Shown here one piece after another: positions 26,039 through 61,097 of a DNA stretch of 64,000 nt; positions within the stretch are counted from its first letter, which is position 1, and the number at the start of each line of letters is the position of its first letter. The stretch is from Eledone cirrhosa (Eukaryota): positions 218,240,001 through 218,304,000 of the forward strand of contig OZ024742.1 in the NCBI GenBank assembly GCA_964016885.1, read 5' to 3'. The position numbers were made by a program, and so were the translations under genes. The notes beneath the pieces were generated by a model. That model did not search any database, was not told the DNA's origin, and worked only from the letters and a program-made list of their open reading frames with translations.

Positions 26039-26226
26039 CGACGGCAGAGCTCAAGCCGTTTCGACGGCTATTTCTGGACTCTATTTCTGTCCAGAAATAG
26101 CCGCCGAAACAGCTTGAGCTCTGCCGTCGGGGTCTAACATTTTCCTATTACCCACTCTACTACCCTAGGTATTGAGTACTCTGGTGCGTTATGGTCGATC
26201 TGGTTTGTTACCACACCTCCTTCGTT
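26039..26226 (+). mobile_element. Family C PLE-like terminus, copy 1 (fold-back palindrome with HHR 3' half)
   Basis: Shares ~150 bp with copies at 35709, 38482, 55323 and 60899. Inverted repeat 26039-26129; GAAA-stem III-GTC motif; ends in (TA)n. Confidence 0.75.
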
Positions 26227-26370
26227 ATATATATATATATATATATAATGTAGGAGATGAGTTTTATTGTAGTACAATAAAGCAATGCAGATATCGGATA
26301 ATAAGCACTCTACATGTTGATTTAAAACTGAACTATCCACAAGTGTTTTTTAACCTTCATATCATGTCTT

Positions 26371-26447
26371 CATGTTTTATCTGATGAAAACACAAATATT
26401 ATTGCATGATGATATTTGTTTTTGAAATGCGCATAATAAAATACATG
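26371..26447 (+). ncRNA. Type I hammerhead ribozyme motif, family A copy 1
   Basis: CATGTTTTAT-CTGATGA(26381-87)-[~15-bp stem II]-GAAA(26424-27)-TGCGCA-TA-ATAAAATACATG. Complete core, stem I TTTTAT/ATAAAA, palindromic stem III ATGCGCAT, AUA cleavage triplet. Confidence 0.85.
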
Positions 26448-27128
26448 GAACTCTTTTAACCATCTTTTGTTCTATATATATATATATATATATATATATA
26501 TATATATATAGCTCATTGAGCTATACCTTTTACTGTCATTTCTATAATACGAAGAGGGTGTTTAACTCCAACACGCTCCAGTATTCTAATCCTTATATAT
26601 ATATATATATATATATATATATATATATATATATATATATATATATATATATATATAAATATATATATATATATATATACAAATAAAAATACAAATAAAT
26701 AATCGAGAATCGAAATCTCAGCCCACGAAATCACGAAACACAATCTTCGAAATGTGTGGCAGAGGGCTCAATAGTTTGGGTAAACCAGAGCTATAACTAT
26801 CGTTAAAATACCAACACATAGAGACAATGCTTAAAATCATTCGCACAGCCGATAAAACGACCAGGAAAATTCGGGTCACACAAATAATAAATTAATAAAT
26901 TAAATGAATGTAAAATCTTATATATATATATATAATATATATATATATATATATATATATATATATATATATATATATATATATATATATATATATATAA
27001 TATATATATATATATATATATATATATATATATATATATATATATATATATATAATATATATATATATATAATATATATATATATAATATATATAATATA
27101 TAAGAACAAAAGATGGTTAAAAGAGTTC

Positions 27129-27203
27129 CATGTATTTTATTATGCGCATTTCAAAAACAAATATCATCATGCAATAATATTTGTGTTTTCATCAGATAAA
27201 ACA
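27129..27203 (-). ncRNA. Type I hammerhead ribozyme motif, family A copy 2 (inverted)
   Basis: Reverse complement of the 26373-26447 motif; left arm of the 27100-27385 inverted structure. Confidence 0.83.
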
Positions 27204-27282
27204 GTGCAGTTTTAAATCAACATATGTTGATTTAAAACTGCACTATCCACAAGTGTTTTTTAACCTTCATATCATGTCTTCC

Positions 27283-27357
27283 TGTTTTATCTGATGAAAA
27301 CACAAATTTTATTGCATGATGATATTTGTTTTTGAAATGCGCATAATAAAATACATG
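27283..27357 (+). ncRNA. Type I hammerhead ribozyme motif, family A copy 3
   Basis: CTGATGA at 27291-97 and GAAA at 27334-37, followed by TGCGCATA-ATAAAA; near-identical to copy 1 (910 bp upstream). Confidence 0.83.
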
Positions 27358-57185: not shown

Positions 57186-57296
57186 AAATGATGTGTGTGT
57201 GTGTGTTATATTTCTGTAGATGAGGTAAAGGAAAGAAGAGTGCTCTATGTATAGCACAGAGCTATTTAATTACATCATAAACAACACATTATAATA

Positions 57297-57368
57297 ATTC
57301 CATTACTAAAGTTTCCAGGAAACTAGACGATCCTAACAGAAACGTACAGTACACTCATCAGATGGAAT
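57297..57368 (-). ncRNA. Type I hammerhead ribozyme motif (further family)
   Basis: Minus strand: ATTCCAT-CTGATGA-[39 nt, weak stem II]-GAAA-CTTTAG-TA-ATGGAAT. Perfect 7-bp stem I, GUA triplet, adjacent to (TA)n. Confidence 0.72.
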
Positions 57369-59419
57369 ATATATCTATATCAATATATATATATATATAT
57401 ATATAGTTCAAGAAATGTCAAGAGAAACACAAAGATGGAAAAACACAAAGTCTTATTAGTATCAGGCTTAGGAGGAAGTAGAAGATGGTTCAGCGTTTCA
57501 GATATAAATCCTTCTTTAGGAAATGGAGAGAGAAAAGGTTGGAACATCGGAGTTTGTAAAAAGGTTTTTAAGAAGGCTGGGAGTTGTAGGTGAGTGGTCA
57601 TGGGTGTTGTTATGTGTGTGCAGATGGGGTGCATTTCATGGGTGTGTGTTACTGATTCTGTCTGTGTGTGCGTGATTGGTGTATCGTTGATGGAAATGAG
57701 CGGGCGTGTGTCTGAATGGTTATGTAGTTTCCTGTGTGCGTATGTGTGTGCGCGTATGTGTGTGTGTATGTGTGTGTGTGTATGTGTTTATGTGTGTTTT
57801 TTGTGTAGTTTTTTTGTGTGGGTATGTGCATATGCGTATATGTGTATTTTTGTACGAGTGTGTGAGTGTGTGTGTGTATGCTTATGTGTGAGTGTGTGCA
57901 TGTGCGTGTGTATATCCACGTGTGTGTCTGTGAATCCCTTTGTGTTTTATGTGTGCATGTGTGTACACGTACGTGTATGTGTATGTTTAGGTGTGGATGT
58001 GTGTATGCGTATATCGACGAGTGTGTCTGTGATGATTTCTTTTACACACACACACACACACACACACACACATATATATATATATATATATATATATATA
58101 TATATATATATATATATATATATGAAAAAGGGAGAGATATGTAAGCGAAAAGTAAATGGAAACAACAAACCAAGCAACAGAGTGCTATGAAGAAATATAT
58201 TAGTTTAATGCTTAATTTTGTAGGAAAGGGTTTTAACGTTTTGGAAACAAGTCCTTCAATGGAGAATAGAATGAGAAATAAACAGGTAATAAAAAGATAG
58301 AGTGTAAAAAGAGGAAGAAACGGGTAAACCTTTTTTTGTTGAGAAAAAGCACGTGTGTGTTCAGTCGGCCATTTTAAGAAATGATATACTGAACAGTTTG
58401 ATGATTTTTATGAAGATTATATAATAGGTTTTAACCCATTCTTAAGAGCCGATGGAAAATAAATGCAATTACAAGAATTGATTGTATTAAAACGAACAGT
58501 GTTGAAGTTCACATTTAAGAATGGGTACCAGCTGTTTTGGTCGCAGTACCGTATTATAACAAATACTTTTACTGTATTATAGATCGTTGTAAAATAATTC
58601 TTAACTGCATTTCCATTATAAAAAAATAAATTAAAAATGAAGGAAAGAAACTGACTATTGTTTGATAATATTAAACCAAGCTTGGAAAAATCCGTCTAGT
58701 CACAAGAGACCCATAACTCACATGAATAAAACAAATAATTTTTATTTAAAATAATTTTGTACAATTATAGTTTTGGTTAATCAATAAAGACTTAAATATA
58801 TAAAAAAATAACTTAAATTTTGACTGTATCGTTTTTTACCAACTTTCCACAGAGTGGAAGTGCTGATGAAATATATTCTGCAAAAGAAACTGTAGTTCGA
58901 AAAAGTTTGCGAAACACTACAGTAGACAGTCATTCGATCTTGATTTGCTAGAAGGAGCAACCAAAATCGCACCTTTAAAAGCAAATCACATATTTCAAGA
59001 TAATTAAAAAGGACACATTGGAAATCTAATCATAAATATATAAAAAAGAAGATAGAATGGTCACGCCTGGAATGCCTTTGATAGTAAATATTTTCTATTA
59101 AAGATTTGGAAAAGTGACGTAATACGCAATTCAATCAACCACACAGTACAAGACAAATAAATGGATCCTCCGTCGATTTCGACGATACATATTCCAATTG
59201 TTTGAACGACTAAACATCTTAAGCATTAAATGAGTATATGGGTGGTTGAGTATTTTCAACACTTAATATAATCCCGACACAGAATCAACGACAGGCCATG
59301 TATGACTGGGATAGGCTTTGGAATTACAGGTACAATTTATCTGACGAGTTCTTACACAATTTCATTGACAAGGCTTTGGTGGACCCGAGGCTATTCTTTT
59401 ATTTTTTTACTGGTTTAAA

Positions 59420-60350
59420 GTCATGTCGGGGAATTGTTTTCAAGAGATTTTATACGAGTGCTTTATAGATTTCAATTTTGGTTTTAATAGAGGTCTCATG
59501 AGTACTCCAAAGCCTCTGGTACAACTTGCCGAAAACTGAAATATGTGTTTCAATTTCTTTATCACATTTAGTATCGTTTGTCACAGTAGAACCAAGATAG
59601 GTGAAAGAACTGGCTTATTTTAGAGCTTTTCCTTCTACAAACAACCTAGGCATAACTTTTAGACTACTGCTGGGACATGGCTGAAAGAGGAGTTCAGGCT
59701 TTTATTGCTTATTGTTAGGCTGAAAGATCTGGAAATTGCAGCACATTTATTTAGTATCAGTTGCAAGAGAATAGGCAAGCAGTGAGCAGTCATCTGTGAA
59801 TAGCAAGTCTATTACAGTTTGAAAGGATATTCTTGTAGCCTTAACCGTTGCTAATTGTAAATTCTTCCAGTGGAACGATATTCCACAGAATACCTTCTGT
59901 AACATCAGTAAAGATATGATCTATCATGACTGCGAAAAACAATGCAAATGACACTGGTGCCAGCATTCATACTTGTTTTGTACAATTTATCACTTCAAAT
60001 TGCTGTGATTGATCCCCATTTCAGATGACAAAGGCATTCATATCCCTGTGTCACATTATAATCCCATTCAACATTTGTTCAATTACCCCAAGATTTACCA
60101 AGACCTTCCGAAATATCTCACCATATGACATGTCAAAGACCTTTGTGAGATCAACAATCACTATATAAAGATTTTGTTCATGTTTGTGAGTCTGCCACGG
60201 GTTAAAGATCATGTCCACTGTACCACGGCCAGCCATGAAAACGCATTGGCTTTCAGGATACAGTGTTCTCTAAGTCAGCATTTATTCTATTTAAAATTAA
60301 TCTTGAGAAAATATTTCCAGTGATTTAAAGAAGTGAGTTGCCAGACATTT
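59420..60350 (-). mobile_element. Decayed RTE (BovB-like) LINE RT domain
   Basis: SQCVFMAGRGTVDMIF, VDLTKVFD, LAP..F, LLFTDDC and FTYLGS motifs across frameshifts. Confidence 0.82.
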
Positions 60351-60898
60351 GTGTTTATTTAAATAGACTATCGTAACATCTTGAGATTATTGTTTTTCAT
60401 CCTGCAGAGTATCCCAAAATCAACCTTCTCACGAAGCAAGCCTGATAGGATTGTCGGTTTAGTTGCCAGTGACTCGACCATGTGACAAGGCGTAATGAGT
60501 TACATGTTACAGTAGCACCTGAGAGAATGACCTCACCATAATATATATATATATATATATATATATATCCTTTAACATTTTAAAGGATTGTAAATAAAAC
60601 GAGTAAATCAGACAAAGTTGGAATTCCTTTTATTAATATAATCTTCTATACACAATCATACACACCCGTGTATATTTCTCTCTCTCTCTCTCTCTCTCTC
60701 TCTCTCTCTCTCTCTCTCTCTCACTCACTCTCTCTCTCACTCCCTCTCTCTCTCTCTCTCTCTCCCACTCTCTCTCTCTCTCTCTCTCTCTCTCTCTCTC
60801 TCTCTCACTCTCTCTCTCTCTCTCTCTCTCTCTCTCTCTCTCTCTCTCTATATATATATATATATATATATATATATATATATATATGTGTATATATA

Positions 60899-61097
60899 TA
60901 GGAAAAGGGTCAAGACCCCGACGGCTGAGCTCCGGCCGTTTCGACAGCTAGATCTGAACACAAATCTAGCTGTCGAAACGGCCGGAGCTCAGCCGTCGGG
61001 GTCCTGACTCTTTTCCTATTACCCACTCTACTACCCTAAGTATCGAGTACTCTGGAGCATTATGCTCCACCTGGTTCCTTACCACACTTCCTCCTTT
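60899..61097 (+). mobile_element. Family C PLE-like terminus, copy 5 (diverged)
   Basis: Palindrome 60899-61018 centred on GACAGCTAGAT-CTGAACACAA-ATCTAGCTGTC; GAAA-CGGC-CGGAGCTCA-GCCG-TC. Confidence 0.8.

Follow-up and report, generated by a model that had tools for sequence, protein, structure and literature searches.

The stretch of DNA analysed here (the window; 64,000 nucleotides of Eledone cirrhosa contig OZ024742.1, positions 218,240,001 to 218,304,000) carries five short palindromes (Table 1), which are 5'-truncated inverted insertions of an autonomous Penelope-like element (PLE) of the Hydra clade in (TA)n. Their presence at these positions had been reported in the initial annotation and was confirmed; in each, a short arm is joined head-to-head to a long one. 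In the coordinates used for this element (family C), 0 is the G of the hammerhead GAAA, negative numbers lie upstream and positive numbers downstream. Each copy consists of (TA)n, a short arm extending to +42, an oppositely directed long arm extending to +120, and again (TA)n; the left-hand (TA)n is missing from copy 1, and copy 4 is reversed and has a G-U pair in stem III of both arms. GAAA, the GUC triplet and stem III, whose loop is palindromic, are retained in every copy, and about 98 nt of conserved sequence follow them; all five lack the ribozyme's 5' half, just as had been described. The arm ends of the five copies all fall in loop II or in the 3' strand of stem II. An Rfam scan of the window gave no hammerhead match, and only sub-threshold hairpin matches of the microRNA (miRNA) type on the copies. 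Such remnants, referred to below as stubs, are abundant: in genome-wide pattern counts on the 3.0-Gb assembly, the ribozyme's 3' half has 42,882 exact matches and the tail 39,960, against none for reversed-pattern controls, so that they are not a product of chance.

Table 1. Inverted copies of the family C element and matches of other hammerhead PLE families in the window
Feature	Position	Strand	Element coordinates	Remarks
Copy 1, short (untailed) arm	26032..26081	-	from -18	one non-parental G at -19; 9-nt deletion near 3' end
Copy 1, junction insert	26082..26088	.		7-nt repeat of short arm, templated
Copy 1, long (tailed) arm	26089..26226	+	-17 to +120	GAAA at 26106
Copy 2, short arm	35708..35756	-	-6 to +42	ends in (TA)n
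Copy 2, long arm	35754..35881	+	-7 to +120	GAAA at 35761; 3-nt microhomology with short arm
Copy 3, short arm	38480..38523	-	0 to +43	
Copy 3, long arm	38526..38663	+	-18 to +120	GAAA at 38544; preceding 2-nt insert ends in G
Copy 4, long arm	55323..55456	-	-13 to +120	GAAA at 55443
Copy 4, junction insert	55457..55463	.		7 nt, repeats arm sequence
Copy 4, short arm	55464..55518	+	-12 to +42	
Copy 5, short arm	60898..60959	-	-17 to +44	older subfamily G
Copy 5, long arm	60964..61095	+	-11 to about +120	after 4-nt insert; GAAA at 60975
Families A, B, D, E	26248-26473 + 27100-27487; 36316-36520; 36592-36900; 27845-28355; 36920-37400 + 55614-55772			

The earlier proposal that the copies derive from a PLE and hold a hammerhead remnant was borne out. 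The element has an autonomous parent with a complete hammerhead. Its unit of 3.54 kb lies in (TA)n, and tandem copies, with a period of 3,531-3,546 bp, have the order ribozyme, tail, 5' untranslated region (5'UTR) and ATG. The parent encodes one open reading frame (ORF; a 710-aa frame at locus L091), in which motifs read by eye indicate a reverse transcriptase (RT) followed by a C-terminal GIY-YIG-type endonuclease: the product, P0001, has DKT, RWR, a CxCX5C linker, and CxxC and CxH around the E and N residues, and lacks CCHH. Compared with the published description of the Hydra clade (PMC8557442; this and the other sources marked by accession are cited for the portions of their text that were available), these motifs are the marks of that clade, with one departure, RWR in place of RWK, a conservative change. 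An assignment to Neptune was dropped following this comparison. Pfam and PDB scans of the ORF gave no match; its protein-atlas neighbours, at 0.96-0.99, include some with GIY-YIG or RVT_1 in 18-77% of members, and 402 homologs were found at E<=1e-30. The hallmarks of endonuclease-bearing PLEs, namely partial tandems forming pseudo-long terminal repeats (pLTRs), an inverted 5'-truncated copy and a tail at one end, are present (L093, L096, L172); target-site duplications are masked, since the insertions sit in (TA)n. Inverted arms of 0.17-1.9 kb, both containing the ribozyme, are present in 20 long loci that were selected for holding a head-to-head pair; the tail motif, where found at an end, is on one arm only. 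Both 3' ends, +42 and +120, precede TAT in the parent.

In untruncated copies (L005, L018, L029, L030, L056) stem I is followed by UUGANAA and stem II, and beyond a loop of about 36-40 nt come stem II' and GAAA; the UUGANAA core (U3-A8) lies 55-61 nt upstream of GAAA. There are 1,043 exact matches of this 5' half, with all four bases at position 7, and an older subfamily adds 127. The CUGANGA parent that had been predicted was not seen: among the listed ones of its 75 pattern matches none has the predicted layout, and those loci that were read are junction sequences or chimeras. In 28 copies from three subfamilies the hammerhead pairs are formed in 91% of cells, compared with 27-47% in slid controls, a count made on the very sequences from which the structure was drawn. 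Five pairs change on both sides, four of them in stem II, so that stems I-III are supported by covariation. Core boxes with the 3-8 pair (UA in 24 copies, UG in 3, CG in 1), G10.1-C11.1 (24 of 28), GAAA and NUH identify a type I hammerhead, the core conservation being partly a product of our selection because the search patterns fixed part of the core. Folds of single sequences are weak (z of -1.8, -1.0 and -0.4), and stems I and II appear in one of three only. Subfamilies at L201, L209, L216, L220 and L147 carry CG, UG and UA at the 3-8 pair, and these variants may represent steps by which the canonical core evolved into U3-A8.

Arm ends were mapped in two samples. The first, ordered by position, drew on contig 1, from which the first 100 matches to the tail were taken, and on 20 other regions around core matches, which favour arms that reach -3; bystander copies and those of the window were added to it. 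The second comprised 87 loci chosen by similarity over the 0 to +120 part. Among the 273 arms of the first sample, 164 end at -24 to -10, two at -42 to -25 and none at -55 to -43 (where the 5' strand of stem II lies), and 22 extend beyond; the corresponding numbers for the 206 arms of the second sample are 130, 6, 1 and 9. The breakpoints are therefore non-uniform and clustered inside domain II, 10-24 nt upstream of GAAA, in agreement with the initial annotation. They form a sharp edge at -18/-17 in loop II, with a weaker one at -22, and tail off on the downstream side to -11. The stop hazard at -19 to -17 is 0.18 per nt for long arms and 0.21 for short ones, and about 0.004 elsewhere. The sharp upstream and tapering downstream sides look like the product of a hard edge and of trimming. 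Uninverted loci adjoin (TA)n at -13 to -21 in at least 10 cases, some of which may have lost a mirror arm. A minor peak was found at +22 to +24, where 8 tailed arms end against about 1.2 expected (p about 3e-5); as the hammerhead is predicted to cleave after GUC, this suggests self-cleavage in vivo. A 3' splice acceptor as the cause of the edge was rejected, as the number of ends falls to 19 at -16, beside 60 at -17 and 47 at -18, and the sequence upstream does not form a common exon.

Of 195 head-to-head pairs, 184 combine one tailed with one untailed arm. In 92 of these 184 the untailed arm is the one that reaches farther 5', in 75 it is the tailed arm, and in 17 both reach equally far; in 16 pairs the arms share no sequence, and within the hotspot their ends are uncorrelated (rho 0.04, n=95). 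The pairs fall into 164 distinct junction types, one of which recurs five times, and the five junctions of the window are all different, which upholds the earlier suggestion of independent events. Microhomology of at least 3 nt is present at 30 of 104 flush joints (29%, against 5% simulated), and 14 of 31 inserts of at least 8 nt contain at least 8 nt of element sequence; the junctions look like end-joining. At L006 (about 1620-1670) and L227, A or T runs fill junctions where the arms end in the T-run at -21. Arms within one insertion belong to the same subfamily and differ by a median of 2 mismatches in 40 nt, compared with 8 between insertions (133 pairs), a likeness that both twin priming and self-priming allow. 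Taking these features together, we regard it as very probable that the two arms were primed separately.

Short-contig assemblies of four public runs (from a single study, their kind not on record, and possibly from the assembled individual) contain many further junction variants, joints between opposite strands near -19 and, at both termini, loose (TA)n ends; their depth falls about 15-40 fold upstream of the edge. Contigs over the copy 1 junction have fewer than 31 letters on a side and hence do not formally bridge it. An assembly artefact is an unlikely source of the palindromes.

What sets the edge can be approached from the behaviour of the arms. Arms that start 78 nt apart stop together, so the edge is a position on the template and not a matter of length. 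Tailed arms passing the edge have a passing partner in nine of ten cases (for the tenth no partner was found), and in only 1 of 108 short-junction pairs of a tailed and an untailed arm does the untailed one pass; the arms of one insertion thus stop or pass together, and passage is a property of the event. Among the first 100 intact 5' halves, 44 lie in head-to-head pairs. Thirty loci read from the tail into the 5'UTR, of which 28 were mapped. All 17 ORF-length loci reaching the edge (14 insertions) pass it, compared with 12 of 82 first-pass tailed arms, and one further ORF-length locus ends at +49; the eight tail-into-5'UTR loci that go no farther than the edge are short composites. Six insertions have an arm that reaches the edge, resumes at +185 to +941, in the 5'UTR or ORF, and halts at the edge again. 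These jumps indicate that in the template the stub is directly followed by 5'UTR and ORF, an arrangement which the 5' end of a messenger RNA (mRNA) would have.

YYANWYY is the initiator motif of RNA polymerase II (Pol II) starts. The edge coincides with a match to it, with the A at -18, and the initiator-like octamer is identical across three subfamilies at 6 of 8 positions, against 7 of 23 in the remaining loop II (p=0.04). An extra G, as would be expected from copying of a cap, is shown by both -19 positions of one copy at L167 and by copies 1 and 3 of the window, although its frequency overall is not significant (see below). The edge of family D falls at stem I, on its 5' strand, where the reference copy has a YYANWYY match; that of family A lies about 70 nt upstream of the core in 10 of 27 matches. 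The edges of families C, D and A thus lie at different places with respect to the ribozyme, and the edge is not tied to stem II. In family C it is probably a Pol II start, that is, the capped 5' end of the element mRNA, inside hammerhead loop II.

We consider it fairly likely that the stubs arose from paired cDNAs (complementary DNAs) which ran off the mRNA 5' end in loop II and were then end-joined head to head. According to this model, the enzyme would prime a separate cDNA at each nicked strand of a (TA)n site, using two internal RNA sites near the mRNA 5' end. Both would run off a fixed template edge in loop II, the probable mRNA 5' end, and host end-joining would fuse these paired strong-stop cDNAs into abortive stubs. 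Of the ribozyme, an mRNA starting in loop II would have only half at the 5' end but the whole at the 3' end. Three products would follow from three kinds of template: stubs with ends at -18 from capped mRNA, arms with ends near +23 from RNA cut by the ribozyme, and long inverted copies and tandem arrays from RNA that is circular or read through without being cut. L1 twin priming likewise joins two priming events through microhomology, and retroviral minus-strand strong-stop DNA is a short cDNA that runs off the RNA 5' end and then jumps. Unlike in these cases, both primings here appear to be internal and near the 5' end, so that the arms overlap and a palindrome forms, and there is no tRNA (transfer RNA) primer and no poly(A). 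As a tentative generalization, which we hold with less confidence than the model itself, the inverted termini of PLEs would be paired strong-stop cDNAs; transcription of the present element would start within its own hammerhead loop, so that only the 3' copy can cleave; the genome would record three templates, and stub edges would map PLE starts and in vivo cleavage in any genome.

Several observations weigh against this account. Plain full-length mRNA as a template should yield ORF-length copies ending at -18; none was found, and in the model the 3' priming sites must be assumed to be removed or left out of the transcript. Ends occur as often at -17 as at -18, the frequency of the extra G is not significant (9 of 21 against a background of 28%, p=0.10), and the initiator match is short and was noticed after the peak had been seen. 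Conservation of the loop could serve tertiary contacts of the ribozyme. The Penelope start of D. virilis lies upstream of its ribozyme (PMC2377424, PMC4209133), so that a start inside a ribozyme would be unusual. Some of the passes in tandem arrays may stem from DNA recombination, and later deletions in hairpin centres could mimic arm asymmetry in single cases. Finally, the peak at +22 to +24 is also compatible with pausing where stem III begins to be read, at its foot, and the internal microhomology of that stem could contribute to it.

The main rival, which we think unlikely although it is the best of the alternatives, keeps twin priming and end-joining and replaces the RNA end by a telomerase-like template boundary: a protein bound to loop II, or a loop I-loop II contact, would block RT on an RNA that continues upstream. 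PLE RTs are relatives of telomerase (PMC8557442), and the hammerhead of PAc, a PLE of Anolis, cleaves only with protein bound (PMC11167929); a shared ribonucleoprotein state could account for concordant arms, and the lack of significance of the cap G fits as well. However, the stop recurs after the jump in six of six short-type insertions and never occurs in the 17 ORF-length loci over the same sequence. Moreover, the edge lies 10-15 nt beyond the already unwound 3' strand and not at the foot of a stem, and its place relative to the ribozyme varies among the families as described above.

Generic self-priming, in the spirit of the model put forward for Penelope palindromes (PMC3846280), appears less probable still. 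Here a cDNA ending at the edge would fold back on short microhomology and copy itself, with later deletions trimming the centre; the greater likeness of arms within one insertion, the microhomologies and the templated inserts are what one would expect of it. In any fold-back from the tailed arm, though, the mirror must be a subset of that arm, which should reach at least as far; it falls short in half of the pairs, and in the 16 mentioned it shares nothing with its mirror. Neither the fixed +42 end preceding TAT nor the long copies, whose arms of 0.2-1.9 kb have the same two 3' ends, are explained in this way.

A specific version of self-priming, proposed in the initial annotation, was that hammerhead stem II lets the nascent cDNA snap back and so serve as primer for its second strand; we consider this very improbable. 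It is true that the breakpoints fall in domain II and that stem II is real and covarying. The variable hairpin taken for parental stem II is, however, the palindrome itself, and matches the true 5' strand of stem II only at positions where pairing forces agreement. Fold-back on stem II requires a cDNA reaching -46 to -51, and loop II would then remain between the arms; the stubs have lost this loop, which parental stem II closes. The predicted product has no match in the genome, compared with the 1,043 of the parental 5' half, and arms ending in the 5' strand of stem II number 0 of 273 in the position-ordered sample (22 being at risk) and 1 of 206 among those picked by similarity. In addition, the mirror arm often holds sequence absent from the supposed first arm (92 of 184 pairs), uninverted copies end at the same place as inverted ones, and families A and D have edges outside stem II. 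Nor can snap-back on stem II serve as a general explanation of inverted PLE termini, because long inverted copies keep the ribozyme intact in both arms. Thus, the palindromes are real, the mechanism first proposed for them is not supported, and paired cDNAs running off an RNA end offer a testable alternative with good genomic support.

An ordinary family of miniature inverted-repeat transposable elements (MITEs) or of non-autonomous hairpins with one ancestral junction, or else fold-back artefacts of long reads, is scarcely credible: short length, inverted ends, TA context and the one recurrent junction type recall it, yet the junction types are many where MITE copies are uniform with one internal structure, the ends are fixed and asymmetric where MITE termini are symmetric, an autonomous parent with an RT-endonuclease ORF exists, inverted joints occur in separate short-contig assemblies as well, and for the bulk of copies the single-junction reading is refuted.

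The architecture (an inverted truncated copy with a tail), the clade and the U3-A8 variant of the core are already known. With the Hydra-clade PLEs of PMC8557442 the element shares the single ORF and the motifs listed above apart from RWR, the (TA)n targets, the hammerhead in the pLTR and the inverted 5'-truncated copy with a tail at one end. It differs in its 3.54-kb unit (mostly below 3 kb in those described), in RWR for RWK, in a tail of 78 nt instead of 30-40, in the U3-A8 core, and in that about 90% of arms stop at one template site. Purified PAc (Anolis Poseidon), a predicted dimer, cuts and extends both strands, and its RT starts at two internal RNA sites which define the tail (PMC11167929). 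Two internal starts likewise appear to bracket the tail here, near the pLTR-ORF junction and with an AT-rich target of which both strands would be cut and extended; unlike those of PAc, reported as non-homologous, both precede a TAT that matches the target (PMC11167929). The available part of that study reports no RNA reads ending at the cleavage site and does not address inverted termini (PMC11167929). Hammerheads of the Schistosoma PLE Cercyon resemble ours in the U3-A8 core covariation, unpaired bases after G10.1, a palindromic loop III and opposite-strand ribozyme pairs 100-700 bp apart; the full 5-bp stem III and the loop II of about 36-40 nt are differences, and breakpoints of the Cercyon pairs are not mapped in the portion available (PMC4209133). 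Head-to-head Penelope palindromes also have inverted junctions, short palindromes and an optional tail; self-priming was proposed for them, while our data favour two separately primed cDNAs (PMC3846280). Non-LTR (long terminal repeat) retrozymes are defined as tandem units each with a complete hammerhead (bioRxiv 10.64898/2026.07.22.740005, available portion), unlike the stubs, which are head-to-head and without the 5' half of the core. In the literature searched, supplementary files and older articles behind subscription (Arkhipova 2006, Evgen'ev and Arkhipova 2005, Koyama 2013) aside, no mapping of PLE inversion breakpoints to an RNA 5' end was found, and the available text of the octopus repeat paper PMC13282606 contains nothing on such palindromes.

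The origin of inverted PLE termini and the role of PLE hammerheads are named as open questions in the available portions of PMC8557442 and PMC11167929. Tens of thousands of young stubs provide a statistical footprint by which self-priming can be separated from twin priming, and their statistics single out nucleotide -18 and the cleavage site at +22/+23. In routine annotation such stubs would be taken for MITEs or, given the weak MIR matches on the copies, for miRNA-like hairpins. If the proposed account is true, stub edges could be read in any genome as a map of PLE transcription starts and of ribozyme cleavage in vivo.

At least four more hammerhead PLE families (A, B, D and E) occur in the window, with the same inverted layout of a short and a long arm in (TA)n and with edges at differing places relative to the ribozyme. 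The short arm of family E has its 3' end just upstream of the core, and no sharp edge was seen among 62 matches of this family; the subfamilies of B are too diverged to fix an edge. At L031, L041, L046 and L060 (about 1200-1550) a family C arm stands head-to-head with one from a different hammerhead PLE family, and both arms end close to the edge of their own family; the arm types are mixed, long with long, short with short, and two of short with long. These chimeras reflect either events involving two RNAs or later deletion between neighbouring insertions; they were not used as evidence, because such deletion explains the mix of arm types. At L045 (about 1450-1600) and L049 (about 1400-1570) a family C short arm runs in the same direction into family D or E sequence, the switch occurring via short microhomology inside the ribozyme, by cross-family template switching or by later recombination.

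Short tandem arrays of the family C element were seen at G000:C2:356030068-356031892 and L243-L244, with periods of 299 bp (7 matches) and 257 bp (2-3 units). The 257-bp unit begins at the edge and ends at the ORF start, as repeated jumps would produce, and the short arrays possibly represent the birth of satellites without a full ribozyme. Head-to-tail arrays with at least four matches at the full 3.54-kb spacing (L250-L253, G000:C1:437200354-437210977) are as expected from a circular or multimeric template. Elsewhere in the window, nested inverted repeats of another (TA)n-associated element, in which no hammerhead core match was seen, occupy positions 54341-54862, and a 24-bp minisatellite of about 936 copies fills positions 1-22630.

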